NCBI GenBank assembly: GCA_964648335.1
Contig: CAZYLZ010000004.1
Location: 6,189-70,188 of the forward strand
Source: an uncultured Candidatus Saccharibacteria bacterium
GTDB lineage: Bacteria; Patescibacteriota; Minisyncoccia; Phycocordibacterales; UBA2100
Length of the DNA stretch: 64,000 nucleotides
Direction of reading: 5' to 3'
This document shows positions 29,444 to 62,104 of the stretch, one piece after another (position 1 is the stretch's first letter; each line of letters starts with the position of its first letter). The position numbers and the translations under genes were made by a program. The notes under the pieces are model-generated. The model saw only the letters and a program-made list of their open reading frames with translations. It did no database searches and had not been told where the DNA came from.

Positions 29444-32092
29444 ATGGCTGTGGAGAACCATGATTTCGCGGATAGCACGAGCGTATACTGGATTGACATG
29501 AAGCAGCCACACGGAGGCAAGAGAGAGTTGATCGGAAAGCCCGGTGCCGAGAAAGGGTCATCTGCGCCCGAAGTACTCCCTCCGCTTGAGCAATCAGAAG
29601 CTCCCCATTTTCAAGAAACCATGGCGGTCTTTGGAAAAGCCATATCGAAGGCGCGCGAATCTGCAAACACGCAAGACAAGTACGGGCTCTACCAGCTGCA
29701 GGTGCTTATGCGTATGGAAGAAGCGCTCAAAGAGGGTGTCTTGGATGTGCGAGTCATCGAAGCGGTCCATACGATTTTTAAAGACCACCGCGCGATAAAC
29801 AAGTTTGGCGAAAACAAGGGCGGCGTCATCTTGCAGCATATCAATACGTATTACGACTCCGTACTCGACAAGAGCGAAGCATCAAAAAAGGTCGAGGCCC
29901 ACGGCAATATCATGCTGGAGCTCGCCGAGGCACTTGGCATACCACTGAGCGATCCCGGTCTCATATCGGCCGAAGCACGCAAGACCAAACAATGGCTTGC
30001 GGTTATCCCTAAGGAAACGATGTCCAAAGAGGCACGTGCCGAGTACGAACGCACACAGAGCATGCAGGAGCGCGCTGCAAAACGCGGCGAGCGCATCGAT
30101 GCCATCATAAACGGCCTGTTGCCGCGCATCATGGAAGCGGTACCAACCATGCGGATAGCGAAGGGCGACTTCAAAGACGGAGAACCTCACCCCGAGATGA
30201 ACGAGAAGCTGCAGCAGTTCGCTACAGTGGTGGTCCAGCGTATCAACCGCCAGCTCAAGGCAAAGTTCACCGACATCTCGCGCGCCGACAAGATGTCGAT
30301 GACCGACGAAGAGGCCTATATTCAGATGCAAAAAGACAAGGGCCATTGGAGCGATGACGACTCGTCACGCTGGGACGAGTTGTCGGACGAAGGCAAGGCG
30401 GGCGTCCTCAAAAGCAATCGTACCGAGATACTGCGTATCAAGGACGATCCCACGCGTCGACAAGTCTTTCAGAACGAGTACCTAGAAAAGCTCGCCACGC
30501 TCGATGCGGCGCTCGCAAAGCTCGCAGAATCCGCCACAGGCACCGGCGAACGTATGGGACGGCTCGATCTGTTGCGCGACGATCGTGTCTATGTAGCCCT
30601 CGCTCACATCAAGGCATTTTTTAAGCACACGTACCTTGCAGACGAGATGACTCAGAACGAGAAAGACCGAATCGCAAATTACATGAAAGACGGCGGAAAC
30701 TTTGTTAAGACCTTCGGTACCTACGTCGGCGCAACGTTCCCAAAAACACTGAAGGGCATCGATGGCGCCAAAAAATTCGAAGAAAAGAAGCGCAACGAAA
30801 ACACAGGACTCTCGCTCGATGATACTCCCGAAGAAATCGCGCCACCGGAAGATCGGCTAGAGTCAGAACGATTGCGCAATCTTGCTATCGTCTACCGTGC
30901 CGATCTGGCACGCTTCAACTCACGCTATATCGCGCCAATCCAGCACATGGTCGACCACCCTAACCATCCGTACTTGTCTCCCGATTTCCTGGTCATTTTG
31001 AAAGGACTCATCCCTATATTGCACAAAGACCGCGAGCGGATGCGTACCGGCGCGCTCGCTCGCATAACCGAGGCCGAGAACGGTCCGCAAGACGCGCACA
31101 TCCGCAGCAACCTGTACGCAGCGCGCCTGACGCTCCAGAGCGCGATGATAGGAAGTATCGATCTCGATACCCGCGCACGAGTGCTCATCGAAAAGATCGA
31201 GAGCAGTGGAATATCGACTGCCGACAGCAAACTCGGCGTCACGCCAAAAAGCCAATCGAGCCTAGAAGAAGCATTTGACATACTCGTGGCAAAAGACGGT
31301 CAACTCACGAGACTCTACGACACCTCGATCCACGGCACGATGCTCCAGCTTGCAGACCGCGTCGAGGACCTCCGCAGGGCCGGAATCGACACGGAAGAAT
31401 TACGAAAAATGCGTCTCGCTCTCAAAGGTCTCGAACAGAGCGTTGCCCGGGATTACGCAACGGAAGAGCGACTGCAAAAAATCCGTTTCCGAACTGCCGA
31501 AGCCCAGCTTCGCTCTGCCGAACCATCCGACCGGTTGGGCGAACTCTCCGTTTCGCAGAGTCTGGTCACCAACGAGCTCCTCGCAAACCGTACCGCTGCG
31601 CTTTCGGCCTGTATGGTACTTGATAAGACAATAGACAGGCTTGTTCTTACCCTTCCGAAGGCGGGAACGATGTCCCTTGCATCGCCTATAGATCGGGCTG
31701 CTACCGCGATACCAAAAGAGGAAACGAGATCTTTTGCGCCACCAAGTCCGGTGGCCGAGGCAAAATCAGTTCTCGATACCTTCGATATGGCGCGCAAGAA
31801 TAATGGCATCCAAAGAGATCTCGATACAGCCAAAGCAGCGTTGGCAGCAATGAAAGCAGAAGCGGCTCAGAACAGCGAAGCACTTCGGGAGCTCCAAGCA
31901 GAAGCGAACGAGACGAAAGAGTCTCTCCTCGATCACCAAGAATTTTTGGGTGGTATGACCGATGTTGTAAAATCAACGATATCCATGCTTGAAGCCGTCC
32001 TCGCCGAGGGACATGAAGATCCGAAGGTTCTTTCTAAAGACATTGAAACGATACTAGCTAAGCTCCGTCGCATAAACGAAATAACCGATTAA
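29444..32092 (+). CDS. Large hypothetical protein (882 aa), predicted soluble, alpha-helical/coiled-coil rich. Start codon uncertain.
   Basis: Long intact ORF with no recognisable motif. The start is only 21 bp from the divergent smc start and has no clear RBS. Alternative in-frame ATGs at 29498 and 29621. Confidence 0.6.
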   Translation: MAVENHDFADSTSVYWIDMKQPHGGKRELIGKPGAEKGSSAPEVLPPLEQSEAPHFQETMAVFGKAISKARESANTQDKYGLYQLQVLMRMEEALKEGVLDVRVIEAVHTIFKDHRAINKFGENKGGVILQHINTYYDSVLDKSEASKKVEAHGNIMLELAEALGIPLSDPGLISAEARKTKQWLAVIPKETMSKEARAEYERTQSMQERAAKRGERIDAIINGLLPRIMEAVPTMRIAKGDFKDGEPHPEMNEKLQQFATVVVQRINRQLKAKFTDISRADKMSMTDEEAYIQMQKDKGHWSDDDSSRWDELSDEGKAGVLKSNRTEILRIKDDPTRRQVFQNEYLEKLATLDAALAKLAESATGTGERMGRLDLLRDDRVYVALAHIKAFFKHTYLADEMTQNEKDRIANYMKDGGNFVKTFGTYVGATFPKTLKGIDGAKKFEEKKRNENTGLSLDDTPEEIAPPEDRLESERLRNLAIVYRADLARFNSRYIAPIQHMVDHPNHPYLSPDFLVILKGLIPILHKDRERMRTGALARITEAENGPQDAHIRSNLYAARLTLQSAMIGSIDLDTRARVLIEKIESSGISTADSKLGVTPKSQSSLEEAFDILVAKDGQLTRLYDTSIHGTMLQLADRVEDLRRAGIDTEELRKMRLALKGLEQSVARDYATEERLQKIRFRTAEAQLRSAEPSDRLGELSVSQSLVTNELLANRTAALSACMVLDKTIDRLVLTLPKAGTMSLASPIDRAATAIPKEETRSFAPPSPVAEAKSVLDTFDMARKNNGIQRDLDTAKAALAAMKAEAAQNSEALRELQAEANETKESLLDHQEFLGGMTDVVKSTISMLEAVLAEGHEDPKVLSKDIETILAKLRRINEITD

Positions 32093-32096
32093 TCAT

Positions 32097-33317
32097 ATGG
32101 CTGAAGGATTTAGAAAAAAAGCAGAAGCGTTGCGAAGACTCGCGAAAGATATCCTGGATACGGAACTCACACCGGCCCAGAAAGCCGCAGCTGAAGCGGC
32201 GGAGCAAGAGGGTGCAGAAGCCGAGATAGTCCCACCTGTCGTCGATACCCCGCACGATATGCCAACCGGCACTGCCCCGATAGACCGCGCGCACGACGAA
32301 AACGAGGCACGAAGGGCCGCCCAGGCGGATCTTGCAGAAGCTACGCGTGCGGCCGCGGCTCTCGAACCTATCGCTCCCCCAACGGCAGCACCTGAACCCG
32401 TTGTCGAGGATGAGAAAACAGAACGAAATACAAGGAAGCCGATACGCCGAGTGCGTAGAAAGAAAAGCGATGGACCTACAAAAGCTACTCTTGACGGTGC
32501 CATGCGCTATACTGCCGACAAGGCCCGTTTCGGTCGCGAGATGGTTGAAGCCTGCGGTCGACTGAAAGAGCGAATCGACAAACAATCCATAGTAATTATG
32601 GAGCAGCTCAATACAGCACTGACTTCAGCCGCCGATGGAAGAGCATACTCGTTCGACGCGACGACAGGAAAAATATCAGCAAACCCACAAACTCCAGATC
32701 TGGTGACTGGATATATCAATACAGAAGAGGTCGTGCGCGAACTCGAGGCACTGGTCCGCGATATCCCGAGGGAAATCGAGACGCTCTTCCATACACTGGA
32801 CGAATCGCACGCGGAATTTGTCGGAATAATGAACGGGGAGCCCGAAACAGCAACCCGAAGGACTTTCGCAGAAGTACCGAAAGTCGAATCGAAACCGCTC
32901 GATACTATCGCTGGAGGAACGCCGAGCCCGATTAAGACTTCGCTCGAAGCGGCACTTCTTGCGAGCGCGGACCGAACCGCTTTCCTTAAAGAACTTGTCG
33001 AAGCATCGAATCGCCTCAAAAAGCAAATTGACGAAAAAGTGGTTTCCCTTCTCATGATGATGAAGAGCGCGCTTGCCACCGGTGTCGATGACATAGCCTT
33101 TACACAAAACGAATCGACAGACGCCATCACCCCGGTCCCTCAGAGCGATCCAGTCGCAGGCTTTGCGACACTCGAACGGACTGCGCATGAATTTGCCAAC
33201 GCCGTCGAGAGCATGCCAGAAGAGATCAGACTCCTCATCCAGACACTCTTCGATGCCGATCAGGAATTCACGCGGATTATCAGCAACGGCCTGAACAAAG
33301 GCAGTGCGACTAAATAA
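32097..33317 (+). CDS. Hypothetical protein (406 aa) with an internal tandem duplication of about 130 aa.
   Basis: Repeat pairs FGREMVEACGRLKERIDKQS.../AFLKELVEASNRLKKQIDEK... and ...IETLFHTLDESHAEFVGIMNG/...IRLLIQTLFDADQEFTRIISNG. Starts 4 nt after the previous gene. Confidence 0.6.
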   Translation: MAEGFRKKAEALRRLAKDILDTELTPAQKAAAEAAEQEGAEAEIVPPVVDTPHDMPTGTAPIDRAHDENEARRAAQADLAEATRAAAALEPIAPPTAAPEPVVEDEKTERNTRKPIRRVRRKKSDGPTKATLDGAMRYTADKARFGREMVEACGRLKERIDKQSIVIMEQLNTALTSAADGRAYSFDATTGKISANPQTPDLVTGYINTEEVVRELEALVRDIPREIETLFHTLDESHAEFVGIMNGEPETATRRTFAEVPKVESKPLDTIAGGTPSPIKTSLEAALLASADRTAFLKELVEASNRLKKQIDEKVVSLLMMMKSALATGVDDIAFTQNESTDAITPVPQSDPVAGFATLERTAHEFANAVESMPEEIRLLIQTLFDADQEFTRIISNGLNKGSATK

Positions 33318-33326
33318 CCTACTCAT

Positions 33327-36300
33327 ATGGCAGAATCATTCTTGAGAAAGATGCGCGAAGGCAAAAGCACGGCTGGACCGGCAATGCCGACATTTACCGG
33401 AAATCGAGCGAACGTAGAACACCTACTATCTCCGACCAAGGACATTGAAGCAGGCGCGAGCAAAGAGACGCTCGAGGCGATACAGCGGATAAAGGAAAAT
33501 GCCATACAAGGCATGGTTGCCGATATGAAGGCGGCCGGTATCGAGATCGACGACGCCGGCATCAAAGCCGCCATCGACAACTACGAGAACCAGCCCGGAG
33601 TTAAGCAAGAAGCGATGAAAGCGGTCAAATCGATGCTGCAGTCCCTGCAAGGGAAGACGCCGGATGAGATTGCAGAAACGCTGGCCCAAGACTCTCTCGC
33701 CGTCTTCGAGGCAGGAAAAAACAAGTCAGAGATTCCGCTCGACAACGTCCTGATACCCCTTCTCATGTCCCAGGGCCAGATTCAGCAATCGGCGCTCGAT
33801 AAGGCATCCAAGAAAAAACTTCGCGGTGTAAGCTTAAGCACCAAGAAGCTCAAGACCGGGGCGTTGAGTGCGACAAAGACCGCCATAAGCCGAACCGCCA
33901 TTCCATCGGCATATCTCGTGCACTTTACCCTCGGCGTCGTAGACACAGCAGTCGTCGAGACCGCCGCGAACGGCACGTTTTCGGATTGGGGTCTCGAAGG
34001 CAAGGTCAAAGACGGATTAGCACTCACCTTCTCCATCGCGGCAAATGCTCAATTCGTTAACCGAAAGCTCGGAGTACGAGGAGAATGGATTCGCGGTATC
34101 GGCGACATGGTATGGGGCGATACAACACGTACACGCGTCACCGGTGTCCTCACCTCCGCCCTTATGGCGACGATGGCCCTTGCCATAACTGCAAATACCG
34201 AACGCGGCATCGTAGATTCTGCGGTTTCCGAAGAAGTCGGAATGAAGATGAAAGAGCGCTGGGAAACAGAACGCAAAGCGATGGAAAGTACTATCAGGCA
34301 AGCAGCCAGCCTGTTCCAGACCATTCAGCCGGTAATTGATAAGAAAATGAGCGACGCGTACGTAGCGGGCGGCGTCGGTTGGGGCCCGAGGACCTGGGGA
34401 GTAAACCGTGTTCTCTATGGCAAGAACGCAGAAAGCGATTCGAACTATGCTTCTTTCAAGTCAACACCGGCAACCGCGACACCAACCTTCCGCGGCAAAG
34501 CCATGTCTACCGTAGAAACTCCTACTGCGGCACCAGAAGCACCTGGCCGGCGTGAGGCGGCAGCAGCAGAACTTGCTGCGGCGCAAAAGCGACTAGATGC
34601 GATAAATAAGCAAGCCGAAGGAAAAAGCAAAGCAGAAAAGTCTAAAAAGAAGGCAGATTTAGATGCGGCAAGACTGCGAGTGACAAACGCTCAGGCCGCT
34701 ATCAATGCTCCAAGTCGTGGCACCCCGGCTCCGGGAACTCCCGATACCAGAGCAGCAAAGAGCCCCGAAGAGGTTGAGGCTGCCATGAAAGCGCTCAACG
34801 AGAAGTATGGGTTACAACCTACCGATGGCGCCGAGCAGTATCTTAAAAAGTTGACCGCGGACATTGAACGGGTAAACCCAGAAAATGTGTTCGCCATGCT
34901 CGACTCTCTCATAAAGGAAAGCGAAGTACTTTCGAAATCGGGAATCCTCGGTAACATTTTCGGCATCCTGGCTCCGGTGCCCGGCGTCATGAAGCAGATC
35001 GGAACCAACGTATGGCAAGGCGAGGGATTAGGGTCATTCACTCACGACATCGACTGGTCTGAAACGTTCCATCGAACGTCCGGTGTACGTGCGATTTTTA
35101 AGTCAGAAGAGAAATACCGTAATCGGCGTAACGAGATGGTCAAAGAGCTGAAGAAGGTAATGGTAAGCGCCCAGCTTGATGCCTATCTGAAAGAAGTCTC
35201 TGCTGTCACCGGCATCGACACTGCCATGTCGCTTCCCAATACAAACTTCAACGTTGAGAATGACGCGTTGGGCATCGACCAGACCCCGTATAAGGACATC
35301 GCCAACAAGACCGTTTTCGACTATGTGACACAGATCATCCCTCCCGATGACAGTCCGACGTGGGGTTATATTCAAAGGAGTTTCAGCAAATCGGGCATAG
35401 ATTGGGTGGATGTCTCGACACCACTCGGCAAGAAAGAGGCAATGACACTGCTCATATCTTTTGTGATTCTTCTAATCGGCGGTAGCGTTCTCTACACTAT
35501 CGGCGCCAAGAAAGTGAGTAAACGCTGGGGCGTCATGGGCGCTCTCAAGGATGATGAGAAGAATGGTATCTACAAGACGGAATCGAAGCTCGTCCAGGAC
35601 ATGGTGAAGCTCATCGACGACCGTGAGAAGACGACCCTTGGTGCTATCGCAAAAAGCGGGCTCGATGTTGCCTTGCCGCAGAGAGACAGCGTCGCATTAA
35701 GTGCTGTATTACAGAAGCGGCTGCGCGAACACATCTTGAGCCGCATGAATCCCCCACTCGACCAGACGCCCGAGGGTATCGCATTCGTCAACCGGGAAAA
35801 TTCGCTTGGAAGCCGTAAACTCCGTCACGAGTACGTAGGCAAGTTGAACGAATACATTGAAGGATACAAAAACGATCGAAGCGGTGCCTTGGTTGCCATT
35901 CTACGCGACATAGATTCGGGCCGGTATGCAGAGATAAGCGCCATCAAGGGCTTCGTTGAGAGTTCTCAGGTGCCGGTAAATCGCGAAATGGCGGCAAAGA
36001 ACGTCGCGGACTGGTGGAGCCGTATTGATTCGAAATTTACCAAGACCGAGGTCGAATCCCGCAAGGCAGAAGTACAGAACTTGTATGCACAGCGCGAAGC
36101 GCTTTTGAGCTTGCGACCAGCCATGAAGATCGAGCTCAGCGGATCGATACCGTCTGACGTGATATCACCTGCCGATATCGTCTACACAAACCGATTGGCC
36201 GATATCGATGCCGATATCGCCATACACCACGAAGCGATTAAGCGCATAACCGAGGGCAAAGTAGATGGTCCTGTCGACCGCGACCCGAACGTAGTCTTTT

Positions 36301-37097
36301 CGACCGAACAGGTTCAGTCGCTACAGTCGGAACTCCAAGAGGAAGAGCTTGGAAATACCCTTGAAGGCGCGGATATTACCAAAATAGCGAAGGAATACAG
36401 CACTCTCGTGCAGAGCCTCGGAAAACGCATCGGATCGATGGAAGGGCTCGTATCGCGTGCCTTCGGCGATCAGGCATCCGGGAGCAAAATCTCTTTCGAA
36501 TACGCCTATCGCGACGATCTCCGCGGGCCGGCGATAGTACTCAATCTCGTGCGCCCCGATGGTGACGTGATGACGCTTCCCTTGCGACAAGTAGTCCCGA
36601 GCGTACTCCTCTCTTCCGATGAAGCGATCATGGGAGCAATCGCTCAGTGGTTGCGTCCCGATAGCCAAGAGATGCAAGTTACGCGTCTCTATGCTGTCCA
36701 CGACTCGTATGCGACAACAGTCGAAGAGATCAAAAAAGAGGTGCTTTCCGGAGCAACAGGAGGAATGCTCGACATCGCAGACATCGACGATGCAAAGCTT
36801 GCAAACCTCCAAGACCTGATCCGTCGCAGTGACGTGCTCAAGGTGCAGCGACAACTCATTAAGGTCGCGGACTCTCCCGGTAAGAGTCTCAACCCGGTAC
36901 AACAGAAGGTCTTCGAACAGCCAGACAAGGTTACCCTCAGCGGCATATGGAATAAGGATATCCGCATTACCTTCCGGTTTGCTAAGGAGCGCTACCCTGG
37001 AATCCCTATCAAGTATGATGTTGCCACCGAAGAAGTGGTCATACCTGACCCGACGGGTGAAAAACGAATCAGCATCCGCAGTCCGCAGCTTGGATAA
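33327..37097 (+). CDS. Giant hypothetical protein (1256 aa) with a single central transmembrane helix (around aa 700; LLISFVILLIGGSVLYTIGA) and an N-terminal amphipathic/hydrophobic region.
   Basis: Long intact ORF 9 nt after the previous gene. Shares the start context cATATGGCnGAA and the N-terminus MAE(G/S)F(R/L)(K/R)K with the 32097 gene. No domain recognised. Confidence 0.6.
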   Translation: MAESFLRKMREGKSTAGPAMPTFTGNRANVEHLLSPTKDIEAGASKETLEAIQRIKENAIQGMVADMKAAGIEIDDAGIKAAIDNYENQPGVKQEAMKAVKSMLQSLQGKTPDEIAETLAQDSLAVFEAGKNKSEIPLDNVLIPLLMSQGQIQQSALDKASKKKLRGVSLSTKKLKTGALSATKTAISRTAIPSAYLVHFTLGVVDTAVVETAANGTFSDWGLEGKVKDGLALTFSIAANAQFVNRKLGVRGEWIRGIGDMVWGDTTRTRVTGVLTSALMATMALAITANTERGIVDSAVSEEVGMKMKERWETERKAMESTIRQAASLFQTIQPVIDKKMSDAYVAGGVGWGPRTWGVNRVLYGKNAESDSNYASFKSTPATATPTFRGKAMSTVETPTAAPEAPGRREAAAAELAAAQKRLDAINKQAEGKSKAEKSKKKADLDAARLRVTNAQAAINAPSRGTPAPGTPDTRAAKSPEEVEAAMKALNEKYGLQPTDGAEQYLKKLTADIERVNPENVFAMLDSLIKESEVLSKSGILGNIFGILAPVPGVMKQIGTNVWQGEGLGSFTHDIDWSETFHRTSGVRAIFKSEEKYRNRRNEMVKELKKVMVSAQLDAYLKEVSAVTGIDTAMSLPNTNFNVENDALGIDQTPYKDIANKTVFDYVTQIIPPDDSPTWGYIQRSFSKSGIDWVDVSTPLGKKEAMTLLISFVILLIGGSVLYTIGAKKVSKRWGVMGALKDDEKNGIYKTESKLVQDMVKLIDDREKTTLGAIAKSGLDVALPQRDSVALSAVLQKRLREHILSRMNPPLDQTPEGIAFVNRENSLGSRKLRHEYVGKLNEYIEGYKNDRSGALVAILRDIDSGRYAEISAIKGFVESSQVPVNREMAAKNVADWWSRIDSKFTKTEVESRKAEVQNLYAQREALLSLRPAMKIELSGSIPSDVISPADIVYTNRLADIDADIAIHHEAIKRITEGKVDGPVDRDPNVVFSTEQVQSLQSELQEEELGNTLEGADITKIAKEYSTLVQSLGKRIGSMEGLVSRAFGDQASGSKISFEYAYRDDLRGPAIVLNLVRPDGDVMTLPLRQVVPSVLLSSDEAIMGAIAQWLRPDSQEMQVTRLYAVHDSYATTVEEIKKEVLSGATGGMLDIADIDDAKLANLQDLIRRSDVLKVQRQLIKVADSPGKSLNPVQQKVFEQPDKVTLSGIWNKDIRITFRFAKERYPGIPIKYDVATEEVVIPDPTGEKRISIRSPQLG

Positions 37098-37638: not shown

Positions 37639-38220
37639 TCACGGCTTCGAAAGATTAAATCGCTTGCGAAGACGAGTATCGCCCTCGAGTTCTTCTACGA
37701 CCGCATACAATACCTCTCGACCGAGCACGAATTGGGTCTTGATGAGCGTAACGACGTCTTCACTGTCATAAGGATATACCCATACACTCCCCTGAAGCTG
37801 AACAAAGCCTACCGACGCAAGCATCGCGCGAAGCTGATTTCGTGCAGTGCGTCTTCGTTCAGGAACATCAAAAATGACCATCCTCCACTTTTGATCCCAC
37901 TTTTTAGGAACACTTGTCGACCGCGGCTTTTCGGAAAACTTGATTAAAAAACTTTCACCGAGCGAGGTTATGCGCGCATATTTTTTACCATTTTCCTCGT
38001 GCCATGCCACATATCCATGTGCCACAAGTCGCGCTAATGCTGCATTTGCTCGCCAAGCATACGCGGAGCGGTTTTGATTAGTGTACGTCAGCAACTGCAA
38101 GGCATTTGGTGCAACAACTGCGACGCCGAGTAATCCTCCCACCTTGAGTGCTGTCAGGACTGCGTGCTTGATATTCTGCTTACGGGCTCGTTTCTTGACT
38201 CGTTTTTCTATTTTACCCAT
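37639..38220 (-). CDS. PaaX-family transcriptional regulator-like protein, short form (N-terminal winged helix plus central PaaX/Cas2-like domain; no long C-terminal domain). Paralog of 60191..60754.
   Basis: WDQKWRMVIFDVPERRRTARNQLRAMLASVGFVQLQGSVWVYPYD matches the PaaX central region (WDGKW...GFG...). N-terminal wHTH ...LARLVAHGYVAWHEENGKKYARITSLGESFL. Confidence 0.6.
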   Translation of the reverse strand: MGKIEKRVKKRARKQNIKHAVLTALKVGGLLGVAVVAPNALQLLTYTNQNRSAYAWRANAALARLVAHGYVAWHEENGKKYARITSLGESFLIKFSEKPRSTSVPKKWDQKWRMVIFDVPERRRTARNQLRAMLASVGFVQLQGSVWVYPYDSEDVVTLIKTQFVLGREVLYAVVEELEGDTRLRKRFNLSKP

Positions 38221-46919: not shown

Positions 46920-48800
46920 CTAAGAACGGTTGATGATAAGCCGAGGCATACCATCGTTACCGGTAGAAAACTGCATGGTGTCGTGAGTTGTGATATCCGA
47001 GGTGACGATGACTTTCTCTGGGGCGGCAGTTGTGACAGGAGCCTCAGGAGTAATCGGTGCCTCTTCGTAAGCTGGCTCGTCGATGATGGTCTCGTCGAGG
47101 ATCATAGACTCGGGGTCGCTTGCGTGAGCAGATGCTCCCACGAGTCCCAAGACCGATCCTGCAAGGAGTCCGCGCTTGGCTACCACGAGGTAGCCTGCGA
47201 CGACCGAGAGCGATACAAGAGTGAACCAGTACATCGCGTTTCCGAACGGACCGAAGTCGATGCCGGTATACGGGATCTGCGAGAGCGATACGTACGGTGC
47301 ACCCGAGACGTTCACGTTGGTCGCACAGGTGGTCTGGCGTCCCGCGAAGTCTGCGATGGTGAGCACGTAGCTGCGCGATGCCTCTGGGCGTACTGCGAGC
47401 ACTCCCGAAGGGTTTACGTTACCCAAGCCGTCAGAGAGCCATGCACGTACGGCACCCGTCGAGTTCCAGGTAAGGTTTGCTGCAGCGCCGTTTGCAATAA
47501 CATTTGGCGTTGCCGAGATCGAGCATGCAAGGTTGCCAGGAACAGGGATTGGCGTAGGAACCGGTACTGGGATGTAGGTGCTGCCTACCACAGTCGAACA
47601 GGTGTTCGAGCGACCGTTGTTGTATACCGTGAGGGTATAGGTACGTGCGCCGTTGTTAGTACCTGGGTAGACGGTCGTGGTGCCCGCGGTCGAGACCGTT
47701 CCGACACCCGAGAGGTTTGCCGAGGTGGCGTTGTACGAGGTCCAGGTGACCGTCGCATAGCCGTTTGCGTTGATAGTAGAAGGGTTTGCAGAGATGGTGC
47801 AGGTAGGAAGCTGGACCGGCTGTGGCTGTGGAGCGACAACGGAAACCGTTGCTGCACACGAGCTCGTACCGCCTGGGCCATTAACCTGCATAGTGTAGGT
47901 GCGGTTGGTGGTGACGTTCGCTTCGGTTCGGGTACCCGAGCCTATTGCGACCTGGCCAAAGCCCGAGAGGTTTGCCTGGGTTGCATTAGTGGTCGTGTAG
48001 CCAATCGAGACGGTGCCGCCGTAGTTTACCCCCGTGACATGCAGCTGGCATGACGGAACTGGGTAGAACTGTGCCTGCACTATTGGCTGTGGGGTCACCT
48101 GGGTGACGCGAGCAACAGTAGTTACCGGAGTGACGGTGGTTACCGGGCGTGCAACCGAGGTTGCGTATCCAGTAGCGCCGTAGGATGCGCCACGAGCGCT
48201 GGTGTACGAGCCGTAGGCCTGTGCACCGTAGCTAGCTGCGCCATAGCTTGCCGATCCCATTGATACGCCGTAGCCGTCTTCGTTGACGTTAGTCCATGTG
48301 TCGGACTCCGCGACGTTAGTCCAAGTATCTGATTCATTGACGTTAGTCCACGTGTCGGACTCCGCAAGATTAGACCAGGTGTCAGACTCGGACTGGTTAT
48401 ACCAAGCATCGGTGTCACCGGTGTTTGTCCACACATCGGAAGCTGCGTTGTCGTACCATGCATCAGAAACGCCCAAATCAGCCCAGGTATCGGACGAGCC
48501 ATCGGTGTACCAAGAATCAGAGTCGCCGCCAGCATCAGTCCACGTATCAGAAGATCCGCTGTCGTACCAAGAATCCGATGAACCCGAATCATACCAACTG
48601 TCAGACGACCCACTGTCGTACCACGAATCGGACGAACCAGAGTCGTACCAACCGTCGGAATCTCCAAAACCGTCTGCGAATGCTATCTGCACCGTACCAA
48701 AAACACTGGCGAACATGATCGTCGCGACGAGTGTGGTCTGTGCTGTTGTTGCCAATGTCTTATACATACTATGCGTTGTTAAACCCTGTAATAGAGCCAT
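46920..48800 (-). CDS. Large secreted surface protein. Signal peptide, tandem SDSWYDSGS / ESDTWTNVN repeats, three Cys-bracketed domains of about 75 aa, ...YVSLSQIPYTG motif plus TM plus KRG, then a 90-aa acidic C-terminal tail.
   Basis: MYKTLATTAQTTLVATIMFASVFGTVQIAFADG signal (alternative start at 48767). Repeats CTISANPSTINANGYATVTWTSYNATSANLSGVGTV...C. C-terminal PYVSLSQIPYTGIDFGPFGNAMYWFTLVSLSVVAGYLVVAKRG. Confidence 0.7.
   Translation of the reverse strand: MALLQGLTTHSMYKTLATTAQTTLVATIMFASVFGTVQIAFADGFGDSDGWYDSGSSDSWYDSGSSDSWYDSGSSDSWYDSGSSDTWTDAGGDSDSWYTDGSSDTWADLGVSDAWYDNAASDVWTNTGDTDAWYNQSESDTWSNLAESDTWTNVNESDTWTNVAESDTWTNVNEDGYGVSMGSASYGAASYGAQAYGSYTSARGASYGATGYATSVARPVTTVTPVTTVARVTQVTPQPIVQAQFYPVPSCQLHVTGVNYGGTVSIGYTTTNATQANLSGFGQVAIGSGTRTEANVTTNRTYTMQVNGPGGTSSCAATVSVVAPQPQPVQLPTCTISANPSTINANGYATVTWTSYNATSANLSGVGTVSTAGTTTVYPGTNNGARTYTLTVYNNGRSNTCSTVVGSTYIPVPVPTPIPVPGNLACSISATPNVIANGAAANLTWNSTGAVRAWLSDGLGNVNPSGVLAVRPEASRSYVLTIADFAGRQTTCATNVNVSGAPYVSLSQIPYTGIDFGPFGNAMYWFTLVSLSVVAGYLVVAKRGLLAGSVLGLVGASAHASDPESMILDETIIDEPAYEEAPITPEAPVTTAAPEKVIVTSDITTHDTMQFSTGNDGMPRLIINRS
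48283..48665. repeat. Imperfect 27-bp tandem repeats encoding (S/E)D(S/T)W(Y/T)(D/N)xGx nonapeptide repeats.
   Basis: Top-strand units gttagtccatgtgtcggactccgcgac / gttagtccacgtgtcggactccgcaag etc. At least 5 SDSWYDSGS copies. Confidence 0.7.
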
Positions 48801-48902
48801 TATACTACTTATAAATGATTTGTCAAGAGCAAAGAAAAGAGCGGCTATAGTATAGCCGCTCTTGGAGTTTTGTCATCATCCGATTCCCAGGTCAACCCGG
48901 AA

Positions 48903-49457
48903 TCACTTCCAGGTCATCTGCGGCATGTCGAACTTGCCACCCTTCTTGCCGACTGGCTTGAGGATGATGCCTTCGCTCGCGGTTCCGGCCCACTCGCCTT
49001 CATAGCACTGCTGGGCGAAGTTCGAGCACGAACGAATCTTGATTACCCCTGCATTAGTCGGGAGCATCAACTTCGCCGTATCGTAGTCAGGATTGAAGCC
49101 GGCCGAATCTTTCTTGTTGGGCAGCACCCGCACTTGATAGCGGATGACGCGGTCGCTGCAGATTGCAGCACCGAGCACCGAACTCTTCGATTCGACCTCG
49201 GAATCGACCCGCAGACGATCCTCGATCTGGTCGATCTTGGTGGTGAACTGCACCTCGATCGGCAGATCCGAGAGATATCCTTTCGGACTCTCGACGAGCG
49301 GTCGACGCACGCCGACTGCGACATACCCCGAGCTGGACTCCGCGACCTTGATGGTCTTGTAGTCCACTTCGGTGCATTCCGGCTTCTGCGCCATAGCGCC
49401 GAACGATGACGTGACGAGCGCAGCGAGAGCTGCGGTAGCGAGAGCGAGCTTGTTCAT
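48903..49457 (-). CDS. Secreted hypothetical protein (about 184 aa) with a signal peptide.
   Basis: MNKLALATAALAALVTSSFGAMA signal peptide at an internal ATG of ORF 48903..49877. Lies in the surface-protein cluster. Confidence 0.5.
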   Translation of the reverse strand: MNKLALATAALAALVTSSFGAMAQKPECTEVDYKTIKVAESSSGYVAVGVRRPLVESPKGYLSDLPIEVQFTTKIDQIEDRLRVDSEVESKSSVLGAAICSDRVIRYQVRVLPNKKDSAGFNPDYDTAKLMLPTNAGVIKIRSCSNFAQQCYEGEWAGTASEGIILKPVGKKGGKFDMPQMTWK

Positions 49458-50211: not shown

Positions 50212-51351
50212 CTAAATATCGTATGTTCGAACCTCTGCGCTATCCACTGTGCCCTGGTCGTTATCGTTAGGGTCTTGGTACTGAGCACCCTCTGGAAGCG
50301 CATCGTACGAACCTCCCTCCTCACCCCATGGTGCACCCGGCGTTCCTTGGTCGTTATCATCAGAGTTTTGGTACTGCGGCACCCGCAGGCTATTCGGTGT
50401 AAACACACCACCTTGATCATTAGAATTAAAATCTCCTTCGGTAACATAGGTCCCGTCTGCTGTTTCGGTCGTGCGATACGTACCTCCCTGATCGTTATCG
50501 TAAGGGTCCTGGTAATTACTTCCATCTGAATCGCTTCGCACATAGCTATCATCGTATTCTTCGTCGAGGTATCCAAAATAGCTTTCGATTGGCTCCCATA
50601 CCGGCAAGAACACTTCGTCGTAGACAAACTCGGGCACTGCCCATACGGGCTCGAGCCACGAGTACCACGGGTCGTCGACGATTATAACCGGTGTCGAGTT
50701 GACCAACTGATATGAGGGCGAGACGACCGTCAGAGGGCGCGGTTGAGCCACGCTTCCCTGTTGTCTGATTTGGGGCGCGGCAACCGAGTTGTTCGAATTT
50801 ACGACCGAAAGCGTCGTCGCACAGCTTGCGGTGCCCGACGAGTTTTGAACCGTCATGCGGTACTGTGTCGTTACCGATGGGCTCACGATGTACGAGTCGT
50901 TTGGATCTACCGTACCGATGCCGGGAATATTTGCACCAAGTGCATCCTTCGAGCGCCACGAGATCGATGCAGAATTACCGCGTACGATCTGTGCCGGGTT
51001 TACGGCGATAGTGCAGCTGGGCATTGCCGAGCGGACAATGACCTGTGTTGCGCACGTTGTCTGTGCTCCGGAGTCGTCTTTGACTACCAGTGTGTACGAG
51101 CGGCTCTCGGTAGGCTTTACCGTGTCAGAGCCCGAAGCGGTTACCGTCTTTCCTCCCGAGAACACACCAACGATGGCGTTGTTCATGGTCCAGCTCAAGC
51201 GCGTAGATTCGCCCGGTGCAATCGTACTGGGCACCACCGCGATAGAACAGGCGGGTGTTGCCGCCAGAGCCACGACCGGGCCGAGAGATGCCGCGATGAG
51301 TGCTCCAGCAAGAACCAAGCGGGTCGTAAGGAAAGGTAAGCGCATCAGCAT
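50212..51351 (-). CDS. Secreted surface protein with two Cys-bracketed domains of about 75 aa (same family as 4605..6224 and 46920..48800) and an acidic C-terminal region with D-N-D-Q-G repeats. No C-terminal anchor.
   Basis: Signal peptide MLMRLPFLTTRLVLAGALIAASLGPVVALAATPA. Repeats CSIAVVPSTIAPGESTRLSWTMNNA...C and CTIAVNPAQIVRGNSASISWRSKDA...C. Tail ...YQDPYDNDQGG...NSNDQGG...NSDDNDQGT...PNDNDQGT. Confidence 0.65.
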   Translation of the reverse strand: MLMRLPFLTTRLVLAGALIAASLGPVVALAATPACSIAVVPSTIAPGESTRLSWTMNNAIVGVFSGGKTVTASGSDTVKPTESRSYTLVVKDDSGAQTTCATQVIVRSAMPSCTIAVNPAQIVRGNSASISWRSKDALGANIPGIGTVDPNDSYIVSPSVTTQYRMTVQNSSGTASCATTLSVVNSNNSVAAPQIRQQGSVAQPRPLTVVSPSYQLVNSTPVIIVDDPWYSWLEPVWAVPEFVYDEVFLPVWEPIESYFGYLDEEYDDSYVRSDSDGSNYQDPYDNDQGGTYRTTETADGTYVTEGDFNSNDQGGVFTPNSLRVPQYQNSDDNDQGTPGAPWGEEGGSYDALPEGAQYQDPNDNDQGTVDSAEVRTYDI

Positions 51352-51400: not shown

Positions 51401-51445
51401 AAAAAATACCCGGTGCCGCCTACGCAGCACCGGGTATTTTTAAAA
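51401..51445 (-). terminator. Rho-independent terminator downstream of the sortase gene.
   Basis: atacccggtgc-cgcctacgca-gcaccgggtat flanked by A/T tracts. Confidence 0.6.
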
Positions 51446-51448
51446 GAT

Positions 51449-52213
51449 TTATTGCGTAGCGTCTGGCGTCGGATATGCCGAGACAAAGTTGGCTTCGACG
51501 ACCCAGCGCGAGCTCTTTGCTCCAAAGGTGTCACAGGTGCTAAGGGTCAGCTTTTGTCCGCCGTTGCCGCTTAAGTCGATTACTTCTTCGCTCGCATCGG
51601 TCTTGCGAATCTTCGTCACTTGGTAGGTGTAGGTATAGCCGCCTCCGATGACCTCGATAAGCGCGCCATCACTTAGGTCGGGTAAGCCGTTGAAGGCTTT
51701 GTACATCTGGTTGTGCACGACCGGAAGGTGCGAACTATGGCCAAAGATAAGGACATTTCCGACCTCGCCGAGTTTGCCCGACGATGGGTAGCGCACGACC
51801 TCTTTCGTAAGAAGCGCATCGAGTGATGCGACGTTGGTGGTCGATGGATTGCCTACAGGCAAGTCGAGACCTATCGAGCGGATCACCAGGCGCGAAGGCT
51901 CGGCGATTGGTGCGTGCGCCACAACAGGCGCGAGCTCCTCGCCCAAAACCGGAAGCGCGCTGAGTGCCACGGCCATTTCCGGATGCTCTGCCAAGGGGGC
52001 AATCGCTGCAATCTCGGAGTCTGAAATAGTATAGGCCACCGGTACGTCGAAGTCGCTCGAGGCCGAGACGGTGGGCGCGCTACCGTCGACGTAGTATGGA
52101 ACAAACCCGGTCGCGAAAGCGGCCGAGAATGTGATACCGAACAGGAAGAGGCTCGCGAGCATTACTGCGGCGAGATCGCTCGGTTCTTTATGTACTCGTT
52201 TTTGTATGGCCAT
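51449..52213 (-). CDS. Sortase-family transpeptidase (membrane-anchored).
   Basis: N-terminal TM (LAAVMLASLFLFGITFSAAFA), catalytic His (NVLIFGHSSH), TLxTC cysteine motif (QKLTLSTCDTFG) and a downstream Arg (SSRWVV). Confidence 0.8.
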   Translation of the reverse strand: MAIQKRVHKEPSDLAAVMLASLFLFGITFSAAFATGFVPYYVDGSAPTVSASSDFDVPVAYTISDSEIAAIAPLAEHPEMAVALSALPVLGEELAPVVAHAPIAEPSRLVIRSIGLDLPVGNPSTTNVASLDALLTKEVVRYPSSGKLGEVGNVLIFGHSSHLPVVHNQMYKAFNGLPDLSDGALIEVIGGGYTYTYQVTKIRKTDASEEVIDLSGNGGQKLTLSTCDTFGAKSSRWVVEANFVSAYPTPDATQ

Positions 52214-52264: not shown

Positions 52265-52294
52265 ATATTACCATATAAATGATGCTTTTGTCAA
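52265..52294 (-). promoter_or_regulatory. Consensus sigma70-like promoter for the sortase gene (TTGACA, 18 nt, TAATAT).
   Basis: Reverse complement of tgtcaa at 52289-52294 and of atatta at 52265-52270. Confidence 0.5.
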
Positions 52295-52413: not shown

Positions 52414-53514
52414 ATGTCCGAGATCCACAAAGAAGTGACCATCGAGAAGAAGAGCACGCTCATGAACGTGCTTTCTATCGTCGGCTTCATCATCATCGTC
52501 GGTATCGGCATCTGGGGTGCGATCAACGCGGTGCGCCTCGCTCCTTCCCTCTTTTCGACCATCGGCAATCCGTTCGCTTCGGCCTCGACCAAGCTCACGC
52601 TCAAGCTCCCCACTTCGCCAGTACAGTCGGGCACACCGTTTGCTATCACCTGGACCCACACGCCCAAAGGCGGCATCTATGCCTTTAGCTACGCCTGCAA
52701 GGACGGCTTCGCATTCCAGACAGCCGCTACCTCGACCGGCGGCTTCTCTGACATCAAGTGCCAGACCGCGTACACCATTCCGGTAACACAAAAGTCGCTT
52801 ACCTTGCTCGGTGTCTCGACCAAGAATCACTTCATGGACGTTCCGTTCGCAGTCGCCTACGTCGGCGCCGACGGCAAAAAGGCAGCAGAGGCTTCGGCGT
52901 CGCTTACCTTCGAGAACATCACCATCGCCCAGAGCCCTAACACCACCGGATCTGTCGCAACTACAACTACCGCTAAGCCTGCGACCACAGTAACGCCAGT
53001 TGTTAAGCCCACCACAACGACTCCTGCAAAGCCTGTCGTCACAACGCCAACAACGCCCACCAAGACTCGCTCGAACCCCAACGGCACGGCCGACCTCGCA
53101 GTACGCATCCTCTCGATCACTGGCAACACCAGCTATTCAAACGGCTCGCAGTACGGCGCGTACGTCGATCCTTCGCAGCTTGTATCGGTAAAGTTCGAGG
53201 TTAAGAATATCGGAGACAAAGCAACGCCATCGTGGACTTTTAACGCAGCGCTCCCAACGAACCCTCCGCAGCCGTTCTACTCGAAGGTCCAGGCGCCGTT
53301 GTATCCGGGCGACCGTGTCGAGTACACACTTACCTTCGACCACATCATCCCGGGCGCCTTCATGGTCACGGTAGACCCGACACAGCAGGTATACGAGGCA
53401 AGCGAGAGCAACAACGTCGTCTCGTACCCAATCGAGGTAAACTCGTACCAGCCGGTACCACAGCCACAGCCCTACTATCCGACCGTCTACGACAACGGCT
53501 ACGGCACCTACTAA
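52414..53514 (+). CDS. Membrane-anchored surface protein with Thr/Pro-rich linker and a C-terminal beta-sandwich (CARDB-like) domain.
   Basis: N-terminal TM (LMNVLSIVGFIIIVGIGIWGAI); TTTAKPATTVTPVVKPTTTTPAKPVVTTPTTPTKT linker; ...ADLAVRILSITGNTSY...KFEVKNIGDKATPSWTFNAALP resembles CARDB. Confidence 0.55.
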   Translation: MSEIHKEVTIEKKSTLMNVLSIVGFIIIVGIGIWGAINAVRLAPSLFSTIGNPFASASTKLTLKLPTSPVQSGTPFAITWTHTPKGGIYAFSYACKDGFAFQTAATSTGGFSDIKCQTAYTIPVTQKSLTLLGVSTKNHFMDVPFAVAYVGADGKKAAEASASLTFENITIAQSPNTTGSVATTTTAKPATTVTPVVKPTTTTPAKPVVTTPTTPTKTRSNPNGTADLAVRILSITGNTSYSNGSQYGAYVDPSQLVSVKFEVKNIGDKATPSWTFNAALPTNPPQPFYSKVQAPLYPGDRVEYTLTFDHIIPGAFMVTVDPTQQVYEASESNNVVSYPIEVNSYQPVPQPQPYYPTVYDNGYGTY

Positions 53515-61060: not shown

Positions 61061-62104
61061 TTAAAAAGGAATATCATCAATACTTATGTCAGGAGGTCGG
61101 GTAATTTCTACAGGTGTAAGTACCATCGGGCGTGGTGGCGATTCAAGGCCCAGTATACGCTTGGCACGAGCAAGTACATGATCATACGTCATGATTGCGA
61201 GGTTATGGTACGAAGAATTTACAATTCGATAGGCTTCATTCTGTGAAGAAGTCCAGTCCGCTGATCGCCCAAAGACTAACACGCAGCGTGGTTTTACAGT
61301 CTTTACATATTCGATCCTTTCAAGAAATTTGACACTGTTTGCCTCGCGCTCAAGCTCATAAACATACCTATTTGCCTGTGTTATTGCTTTCGTTAAATCC
61401 GGCGATGGAATATCATTCCCATGATCCTGACTATTCGCCCAAAACGTGAGGCCACCTCCGGGCCGCTTTATCTCAACAACATCCACGAAGCCATCATAGG
61501 CCTGCATTAAATAGTCTGAGACATGCGCTGTATCAATCGATCTCTCGTCCAGTATCTTTACAAACTCTGTTCCTAATACCCAATGATTCTCTTTAAACCA
61601 TTTCTGCCAACTACTTTCAGTTAAATCTTCACCCAGCATGCGCTCGAAGTCTTCCAATGCAGAAACCCTCTTTTGCTGGTCTAGACTGAGTAAGATATCT
61701 CTCGGTAAAATTGAGTTTTCATTTATGAACTTCAGAACACTTGTCTTGTCAGGATTCTCGAAGAGTGCCTTGATATGCTCAATATCGCCGCCATCAAATT
61801 TCTGATCAAGAGGGATATATTTTTTTACCCCATCTATTAGAGGAGCATAATTCTCACCTATAAATTTAACTAAAGATAAAAATTCTTCATTATCTAATGT
61901 GAGCTCGCTCTTCGGAACAGTAACCTCTGGCGATTCGGCCCCAACCTCATTCTTATAACGACCAATCTTGAGATTTATGTCATCAGTTTTTCCGGAATTA
62001 TGCGGAACCCTCCAAAAAGAGGCTCGTGTGACAACGGTTTTTTTCCTTTTTAGAACAGTGTGCAATGAGCCTATGCCTCCCTTACTTTGTCGCACCTCTT
62101 TCAT
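61061..62104 (-). CDS. PD-(D/E)xK nuclease-fold protein resembling the Shedu/DUF4263 defense family. The gene is AT-rich (about 42% GC versus about 58% for flanks).
   Basis: ESSWQKWFKENHWVLGTEFVKILDERSIDTAHVSDYLMQAYDGFVDVVEIKRPG has a D...(D)hhEhK nuclease motif preceded by a W..F..N.W.LG segment. Visibly lower GC than neighbours. Confidence 0.5.
   Translation of the reverse strand: MKEVRQSKGGIGSLHTVLKRKKTVVTRASFWRVPHNSGKTDDINLKIGRYKNEVGAESPEVTVPKSELTLDNEEFLSLVKFIGENYAPLIDGVKKYIPLDQKFDGGDIEHIKALFENPDKTSVLKFINENSILPRDILLSLDQQKRVSALEDFERMLGEDLTESSWQKWFKENHWVLGTEFVKILDERSIDTAHVSDYLMQAYDGFVDVVEIKRPGGGLTFWANSQDHGNDIPSPDLTKAITQANRYVYELEREANSVKFLERIEYVKTVKPRCVLVFGRSADWTSSQNEAYRIVNSSYHNLAIMTYDHVLARAKRILGLESPPRPMVLTPVEITRPPDISIDDIPF

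Follow-up and report, generated by a model that had tools for sequence, protein, structure and literature searches.

A P-Y-T-G block as the probable sorting signal of a lineage-specific sortase clade in Kaiserbacteria-like Paceibacterota

A 64,000-nucleotide stretch of contig CAZYLZ010000004.1 (assembly GCA_964648335.1, positions 6,189 to 70,188; the window, below) encodes a sortase, at 51449-52213 on the minus strand, and two surface proteins that carry the same short P-Y-T-G block near their C-termini. We conclude that this block, [Y]-[VI]-[SA]-L-x-[QN]-[IV]-P-Y-T-G, followed after about four residues by a helix and then basic residues, is probably the sorting signal of a lineage-specific sortase clade in Kaiserbacteria-like Paceibacterota, within the candidate phyla radiation (CPR). 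It has been stated in general terms that many CPR bacteria encode sortases along with proteins that have "sortase motifs" (PMC6744442, PMC5220378); a literature search found no published description of IPYTG or VPYTG signals in CPR bacteria. New here are the invariant Tyr, the extended upstream block [VI]-[SA]-L-x-Q, a sortase clade that lies outside the curated classes and has a conserved element after its transmembrane (TM) helix, and, in the principal substrate, the conservation of a helix and a hairpin beyond the block.

A preliminary description of the window had proposed a non-canonical motif in place of LPXTG. That there is a distinct PYTG signal stands, but the idea of a replacement does not, since [VI]PYTG fits the pattern [LIV]PxTG and LPYTG is itself a natural sortase A signal, found in the group B streptococcal beta antigen (PMC4457541). 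Judged by its sequence, the PYTG motif is a restricted variant of [LIV]PxTG.

A sortase outside the curated classes

51449..52213, minus strand: sortase gene, 254 aa (NCBI version 237 aa, start 52162)
52265..52294, minus strand: promoter-like site upstream of the sortase gene, TTGACA-18-TAATAT, TG ahead of the -10, 10/12 match
51402..51441, minus strand: intrinsic terminator of the sortase gene, 18-bp stem, 4-nt loop and U-run, beginning 8 nt past the stop codon

By its Pfam domain, its His-Cys-Arg triad and its predicted fold, the product of 51449-52213 is a genuine sortase, with transpeptidase activity predicted. Over residues 109-242 the open reading frame (ORF) scores 63.6 bits with the Pfam Sortase family (PF04203, MEROPS C60), whose cut-off is 26.6. 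In an alignment with 21 homologs at 43-56% identity, His159, Cys227 (within TLSTC) and Arg236 are invariant, as the earlier claim of a bona fide sortase would have it, and these catalytic residues align with those of Bacillus anthracis SrtA, which is also the first match in a profile search of PDB sequences (E 5e-10). The AlphaFold2 (AF2) model, with a predicted local distance difference test score (pLDDT) of 79, has an N-terminal helix at residues 13-34, which is the TM helix, an ill-defined linker of about 70 residues and a beta-barrel, the catalytic domain. When this model was searched with Foldseek, all 50 of the top PDB matches listed were sortases, with a probability of 1.0 and E down to 4e-11.

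The enzyme cannot be filed under classes A-F because every class model scores far under its cut-off (NF033745-NF033748, TIGR01076, NF058671). The best NCBIfam score is that for class E (27.3 bits against a cut-off of 160), followed by sortase_fam (25.2 against 39.35), SrtD (21.8 against 140), class D (20.6 against 165), class F (18.4 against 166) and class C (18.1 against 160). Its Foldseek neighbors are interleaved, with Actinomyces SrtA (class E-like) and enzymes of classes C, E and A all at 16-27% identity. We tried to assign a class and dropped the attempt, as NCBIfam, the PDB profile search and Foldseek together give mixed A/C/D/E neighbors in that same range of identity.

Between the TM helix and the linker lies the element GFVPYYVDG (residues 36-44, window positions ~52084-52110, minus strand). 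In the 21-homolog alignment, G36, P39, Y41 and G44 are invariant, and V38 and D43 are kept in at least 90% of sequences. The element bears a loose likeness to the [VI]-P-Y-T of the substrates; AF2 confidence is low there (pLDDT 51-66), and to see in it a lid or a pseudo-substrate would be speculative.

The gene also has the promoter and terminator of its own that had been ascribed to it. Our consensus terminator scanner overlooked the hairpin, which was revealed by direct folding: the fold has an energy of -31.9 kcal/mol (z -7.15), and none of 200 shuffled sequences did as well.

A word-indexed search returned 648 homologs of the sortase, and the named ones are all Paceibacterota, Kaiserbacteria or Patescibacteria. 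As a side observation, many metagenome-assembled genomes with this sortase clade are labeled "uncultured Candidatus Saccharibacteria"; these labels look unreliable because the closest named relatives are Kaiserbacteria/Paceibacterota.

Two paralogous surface proteins that share the block

46920..48800, minus strand: long-tail PYTG surface protein, 626-aa ORF; probable start 48767, 615 aa
47262..47297, minus strand: proposed sorting block of the long-tail protein, P-Y-V-S-L-S-Q-I-P-Y-T-G
47178..47252, minus strand: TM helix of the long-tail protein (GPFGNAMYWFTLVSLSVVAGYLVVA), then K-R; AF2 helix, pLDDT 85-89
46926..46982, minus strand: conserved C-terminal cytoplasmic motif of the long-tail protein (THDTMQFSTGNDGMPRLIINR), predicted beta-hairpin
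48799..48826, minus strand: promoter-like site ahead of the long-tail PYTG gene, 12/12 consensus match
4605..6224, minus strand: short-tail (classical-type) PYTG surface protein, 539 aa
4731..4766, minus strand: proposed sorting block of the short-tail protein, P-Y-V-S-L-T-Q-V-P-Y-T-G

A six-frame scan of the whole window finds [VI]PYTG inside long ORFs at exactly two sites. All three ORFs named in the preliminary description exist as given there, and at both sites the block is followed, as it said, by a hydrophobic stretch and then Arg/Lys. The sequence around the site is GAPYVSLSQIPYTGIDFGPFGNAMYWFTLVSLSVVAGYLVVAKRG (also given as NVSGAPYVSLSQIPYTGIDFGPFGNAMYWFTLVSLSVVAGYLVVAKRG) in the 46920-48800 protein and HPPYVSLTQVPYTGFGDIDVLMAIYLGAALVCLSTGIYAVRGG (also given as VYHPPYVSLTQVPYTGFGDIDVLMAIYLGAALVCLSTGIYAVRGG) in the 4605-6224 protein. 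Candidate substrate peptides from the signal are VSLSQIPYTGFD and YVSLSQIPYTGFDFG.

Both proteins start with a hydrophobic, signal-peptide-like segment. In the long-tail protein it is followed by acidic/aromatic DSWYDSGSS repeats, Cys-bounded immunoglobulin (Ig)-like repeats, the sorting block, the TM helix and a tail of about 85 aa. The -10 of its promoter-like site ends at 48799, within the first codons of the 626-aa ORF, and the NCBI product has 615 aa; from the promoter position and the NCBI call, the start is probably the Met at 48767. The short-tail protein has a Gly/Asp/Ser-rich region, four to five Ig-like repeats, a Pro-rich stalk, the block, the TM helix and R-G-G-H and further residues. 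Past the Gly of the block there are 113 residues in the first protein and 41 in the second.

The two proteins had been called otherwise divergent, which is not the case: they are paralogs, with a common Cys-bounded Ig-like repeat of about 95 aa and 38% identity over 285 aa (E 2e-41). Even so, a 13-residue block is identical at 12 of 13 positions and is far better conserved than the remainder. A fold search with the passenger domain gave generic Ig-like, PKD and SoxYZ-type matches at E of about 1e-3 and no functional lead.

A C-terminal fragment of the 626-aa protein, 224 residues long, was modeled with AF2 from an alignment of 20 sequences. Residues 23-97 of this fragment form an Ig-like sandwich (pLDDT >93), the block (residues 99-111, plus Ala98) is in a low-confidence, non-regular linker, and a helix at residues 115-139 (pLDDT 85-89) starts four residues past the Gly of the block, a spacing like that of classical sorting signals. 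On the C-terminal side of this helix are a second short helix, a disordered stretch and a terminal beta-hairpin (strands 205-211 and 217-223). The model therefore places the block outside any globular domain, between the Ig-like domain and the helix. On the evidence of sequence and models, the block is predicted to sit in an unstructured linker at the outer face of the membrane, to which the sortase is itself predicted to be anchored by its N-terminal helix.

As an observation in its own right, a secreted protein with a PG_binding_1 domain (34.4 bits) is encoded at 3386-4138 (plus strand), just upstream of the 4605-6224 PYTG gene. It is consistent with a peptidoglycan-containing envelope.

The signal across relatives

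Loci fetched by way of the sortase yielded 67 signals in a block-anchored alignment, with the consensus P-Y-V-S-L-[ST]-Q-I-P-Y-T-G-[FL]-D-[FL]-G-P-x-G-N-A-x-Y-W-..L..FA.A.AYL.VYY-[KR]-G-G. The P, Y, T and G of the block are invariant (67/67), and Leu at -4 (62/67), Gln at -2 (56/67) and Ile at -1 (55/67) are nearly as constant. Counting every xPxTG site followed by a TM helix in all related loci (n = 163), we found 145 IPYTG, 10 VPYTG, 2 LPYTG and 4 others, and not a single LPXTG among the 163 with X other than Tyr. Because 157 of the 163 sites are [IVL]PYTG, there is no ordinary LPXTG population beside these sortases.

The signal can also be traced without the sortase. A scan of metagenome contigs by the signal alone gave 326 confirmed stretches. 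An exhaustive hidden Markov model (HMM) search with a 52-position signal profile against 1.84 billion cluster representatives (50% identity) gave 875 matches at E<=1e-3, 356 of them at E<=1e-10. This profile was built from the window and from substrings of returned proteins, seeded by a search with the 626-aa query that gave only 16 matches, low-complexity words having crowded its candidate list. When the 66-aa signal alone was used in the word-indexed homolog search there was no match, as that index needs more shared words. These numbers also dispose of the idea that the two proteins look alike at the block only by chance or through low complexity: the PYTG core is short, the one point in favor of that idea, but the extended block with invariant P-Y-T-G accompanies 67 of the 73 P[YFW]TG matches in 1.16 Mb of related loci, and we regard a chance origin as refuted.

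No model in Pfam or NCBIfam reaches the signal at threshold, and at a limit as loose as E<=10 the two window proteins go unmatched by the anchor HMMs PF00746 (Gram_pos_anchor), TIGR01167 and NF033846. A single short relative has sub-threshold matches, exactly on the signal, to Gram_pos_anchor (12.4 bits against 20) and to the Ruminococcus NPXTG anchor (13.9 against 23.5, E 0.05).

The relatives resemble the window proteins in general plan. A hydrophobic N-terminal segment is present in 97 of 104 full-length members (by a heuristic, not a dedicated predictor), and the typical order is short acidic/aromatic repeats, one to six Cys-bounded Ig-like repeats, a Pro/Tyr-rich stalk, the block and the membrane helix. 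The N-terminal repeats are DSWYDSGSS in the window and GWTDYGVT or YSYSDYTTPS elsewhere.

What follows the Gly differs from family to family. In the short, classical class, which includes the 4605-6224 protein, minimal 180-aa proteins and a family of 675-916 aa that ends in PIQYYPPNIPISYIPYTG, the protein ends 29-48 aa past the motif. A medium class has 57-59 aa and ends in RFSFAxEVKxAMRNQ. The long-tail family, which includes the 46920-48800 protein, has 74-170 aa, with a single exception, and its consensus ending is D[ST]M...G..P[RK]IVIxR-x-COOH. Under a strict definition, D[STAV]M...[PGK][RK][ILV][VIT][IV]xR one residue from the C-terminus, the motif is present in 85 of the 110 distinct tails, and most others have a looser form. 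This hairpin motif has no match among known domains. A tail after the TM helix had been reported as an oddity of one of the two window proteins; the tail is real, but it is the norm for a syntenic family with a conserved C-terminal motif. Overall, no fewer than four protein families that differ in tail and TM sequence have only the block, the TM helix and the charge in common. This pattern is typical of a sorting signal, not of a single conserved domain.

Association of the signal with the sortase

52414..53514, plus strand: CARDB-like single-pass membrane protein, divergent from the sortase; Pfam CARDB 24.1 bits, C-terminal domain

Association was counted at the level of loci, using 80 loci from species-representative genomes that were fetched by the sortase alone (128 confirmed sortase matches). 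At least one [QSN][VIL]PYTG ORF is present in 51 of the 80, always on the sortase strand. Where at least 8 kb of downstream sequence was available, a PYTG ORF is found downstream in 34 of 38 loci; with at least 8 kb upstream, it is found there in only 4 of 52, and none is on the opposite strand. The reciprocal test, starting from the signal, gave the sortase upstream on the same strand in 18/18 metagenome loci with a full 10-kb upstream flank. In all, the pairing is seen in more than a hundred related genomes. The block is thus neither peculiar to the two window proteins nor detached from this sortase family, and the lineage-specific sortase/substrate pair first suggested from the window is largely supported.

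The conserved gene order is the CARDB-like gene (divergent), the sortase, a variable island of 0.3-9 kb, the long-tail PYTG gene and thrS (convergent). Long-tail orthologs are downstream of the sortase in most related loci, and the island often holds extra PYTG genes or other secreted proteins. Other arrangements occur in diverged loci. In two of them (L065 and L073) a minimal 180-aa PYTG protein begins 1-33 bp past the sortase. In five others (L028, L030, L041, L046 and L062) a PYTG family of 675-916 aa ending in PIQYYPPNIPISYIPYTG stops immediately upstream of the sortase, and in one more (L071) a PYTG protein of a different family is immediately upstream.

We think that the functional link goes beyond synteny because PYTG paralogs pile up in the island, because PYTG genes abut the sortase in diverged loci, and because unrelated C-terminal modules share only the block, whose conserved core is P-x-T-G.

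Proposed mechanism

By analogy with sortase A and LPXTG, we infer that PYTG proteins are cleaved and attached to the wall. The precursor would be exported by Sec and then held in the membrane by its C-terminal helix, whereupon Cys227 of the sortase would attack the Thr-Gly bond of the block. The acyl-enzyme would be resolved by an amino group of a peptidoglycan precursor, leaving the Ig-repeat ectodomain in covalent linkage to the wall and its acidic/aromatic N-terminal repeats facing out, while a fragment consisting of the Gly, the TM helix and the tail would remain in the membrane. Two kinds of substrate would be handled in this way, the classical short-tail kind (e.g., 4605-6224) and the syntenic "principal" long-tail kind (e.g., 46920-48800).

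The conserved helix and cytoplasmic hairpin of the principal substrate suggest an extra role for the remnant or a role in targeting the precursor. It is tempting to go further and to propose that cleavage at PYT/G splits this substrate into a wall-linked ectodomain and a functional membrane remnant that, for example, signals surface-protein processing to the cytoplasm or brings precursor and sortase to a defined site, with GFVPYYVDG acting as a pseudo-substrate or docking site, so that the whole would be a sortase-coupled device for transmembrane signaling or targeting. We consider this extended scheme rather unlikely.

Weighing the alternatives

Several observations count against a sorting function for the PYTG block. 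The window sortase is monocistronic, with its own promoter and terminator, and forms no operon with its putative substrates. The signal stays under the cut-offs of the existing HMMs for LPXTG anchors. The long-tail family conserves residues past the presumed cleavage site (FDFGPxGNAxYW, the helix and the DxM...PRIVIxR hairpin), unlike classical signals. Finally, part of the co-localization is inherited gene order, as the succession of sortase, long-tail gene and thrS is kept across the clade; the neighborhood counts therefore overstate the number of independent events.

Most of these points can be assembled into the main rival explanation, in which the block is a juxtamembrane element, such as a docking site or hinge, of intact bitopic membrane proteins, and the sortase is nearby only through inherited gene order. 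Conservation of the post-TG residues, helix and cytoplasmic hairpin is what would be expected if they worked as one module, the synteny of CARDB-like gene, sortase, PYTG gene and thrS is broad, and the sortase is transcribed alone. However, this does not account for families with unrelated tails and TM helices, among them the minimal 180-aa proteins and those with short classical tails, that have only the block in common. Nor does it explain why the conserved core should be exactly P-x-T-G, placed as in LPXTG signals, or why extra PYTG genes accumulate in the island downstream of the sortase and abut it in diverged loci. The adjacent sortase is the most parsimonious common partner for the block, and we regard the rival as unlikely, its main support being the conserved helix and cytoplasmic hairpin.

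A second alternative accepts the signal and changes the acceptor: the sortase would be a class C-like polymerizing or protein-ligating enzyme that joins PYTG proteins to each other or to a protein acceptor rather than to peptidoglycan. Class C pilus sortases are among its structural neighbors, Ig-like repeat proteins generically resemble pilin folds, and motifs of the IPxTG/VPxTG type occur in pilins. A candidate acceptor would be the Lys-rich CARDB-like protein, the most constant neighbor of the sortase: its homologs adjoin the sortase in 69 of 80 genome loci, more steadily than any PYTG gene, and its ectodomain has 17 Lys. Other evidence makes this alternative quite improbable. Not a single Lys occurs in the ectodomain, some 450 aa long, of either PYTG protein of the window, and Lys is likewise missing from 60 of the 101 full-length relatives (median 0%), against 37 in the thrS product. 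Lys-mediated self-polymerization would therefore be impossible for most PYTG proteins, and the lack of Lys favors wall anchoring over pilus polymerization. Pilus loci normally pair a pilin-specific with a housekeeping sortase, whereas the 64-kb window has just one; the NCBIfam class C score (given above) is far too low; and nothing ties the CARDB-like protein to the reaction. Pilus assembly was rejected as the main interpretation for want of a pilin-type Lys nucleophile in the ectodomains. The CARDB-like membrane protein may nonetheless be a partner of the sortase, and the absence of Lys from the ectodomains might prevent sortase-driven self-ligation or proteolytic attack.

Other features of the window

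50212..51351, minus strand: secreted protein in the island, 379 aa: signal peptide, a pair of Ig-like repeats of the kind found in the PYTG proteins, and an acidic C-terminus of DNDQG repeats
48903..49457, minus strand: small secreted protein in the island, 184 aa, poorly conserved
48837-48863: perfect 12-bp palindromic hairpin, terminator-like on both strands, between the 184-aa gene and the long-tail PYTG gene

The 379-aa island protein carries neither PYTG nor an anchor, and homologs of it are encoded in 26 of the genome loci and 32 of the metagenome loci. The remainder of the window is ordinary candidate-phyla housekeeping DNA (rpoB/C, dnaG, dnaE, thrS, gyrB and pheT), and scans for tRNAs and Rfam families came back empty. 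Adjoining pheT, a 347-aa protein (61061-62104, minus strand) has the Shedu anti-phage nuclease domain SduA_C (PF14082, 80.4 bits). Downstream of an SMC-like gene, three consecutive genes without a Pfam match (29444-37097, plus strand; 882, 406 and 1256 aa) may form an operon; hydrophobic segments are absent from the first two products, and TM-like stretches occur in the third. A 193-aa protein at 37639-38220 (minus strand) has the PaaX central Cas2-like domain (PF20803, 76.8 bits).

Significance

The Patescibacteria have tiny cells, have for the most part not been cultured and are believed to live on other microbes, to which they attach; little is known of how their envelopes are built and decorated. 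The sortase clade, together with a signal of 10-12 residues, would make it possible to predict, directly from metagenome sequences, which proteins Kaiserbacteria-like organisms display covalently. Those described here, with Lys-free Ig repeats and acidic/aromatic-repeat tips, are plausible adhesins. If the assignment is true, so long and strict a signal, with its invariant Tyr and upstream L-x-Q, could be put to use in protein ligation as an orthogonal sortase-tag pair. In the principal substrate, the conservation of the helix and of the cytoplasmic hairpin further hints at a functional sortase leftover, which, if true, would be unusual for the sortase family.

Comparison with known systems

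The closest parallel is sortase A with LPXTG in Firmicutes (PF04203, PF00746/TIGR01167). Both systems have a membrane-anchored Cys transpeptidase fold with a His-Cys(TLxTC)-Arg triad, and substrates with a signal peptide, a Pro-rich stalk, P-x-T-G, a hydrophobic helix and basic residues. Unlike LPXTG, the PYTG motif has Ile or Val at position 1, with Leu in only 2 of 163 sites, and X is always Tyr; five to six more positions are conserved upstream ([VI]-[SA]-L-x-Q). The window sortase is also set apart by scoring far below the class A-F models and by carrying GFVPYYVDG after its TM helix, and the principal substrate by the conservation of its TM helix and by its tail, about 85-150 aa long, with a conserved hairpin at the end.

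Class E sortases, the housekeeping enzymes of Actinobacteria that act on LAXTG, are similar in being lineage-specific housekeeping sortases with a variant pentapeptide. Actinomyces oris SrtA and the class E enzymes of Streptomyces and Thermobifida are among the best structural neighbors of the window sortase, and class E is its best, though weak, NCBIfam match. However, the class E cut-off of 160 bits is not reached, identity to solved class E enzymes is 22-27%, and the PYTG motif has Pro rather than Ala at position 2.

Class C pilus systems share Ig-like repeats in their substrates, and their sortases rank high among the fold matches. Their pilin signals are of the IPQTG, VPPTG and YPRTG type, in which Ile or Val can occupy position 1 of the pentapeptide. 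They differ from the present system, in which the substrates are Lys-free, each locus has a single sortase and the class C model scores 18.1 against 160.

In organization, namely one enzyme and a lineage-specific motif, TM helix and basic cluster on many secreted proteins, the system also recalls exosortase/PEP-CTERM, archaeosortase/PGF-CTERM, rhombosortase/GlyGly-CTERM and the Ruminococcus NPXTG proteins, pairs that were discovered through co-occurrence. Unlike in the exosortase, archaeosortase and rhomboid systems, the enzyme here is a true sortase, and its motif is derived from LPXTG.

Lastly, and speculatively, in Streptococcus gordonii the C-terminal peptides cleaved by sortase ("C-pep") are sensed by a membrane histidine kinase. 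The PYTG tail is much longer than C-pep and has a conserved beta-hairpin end, but C-pep sets a precedent for a functional membrane remnant, which would rationalize the conserved helix and tail of the long-tail family.

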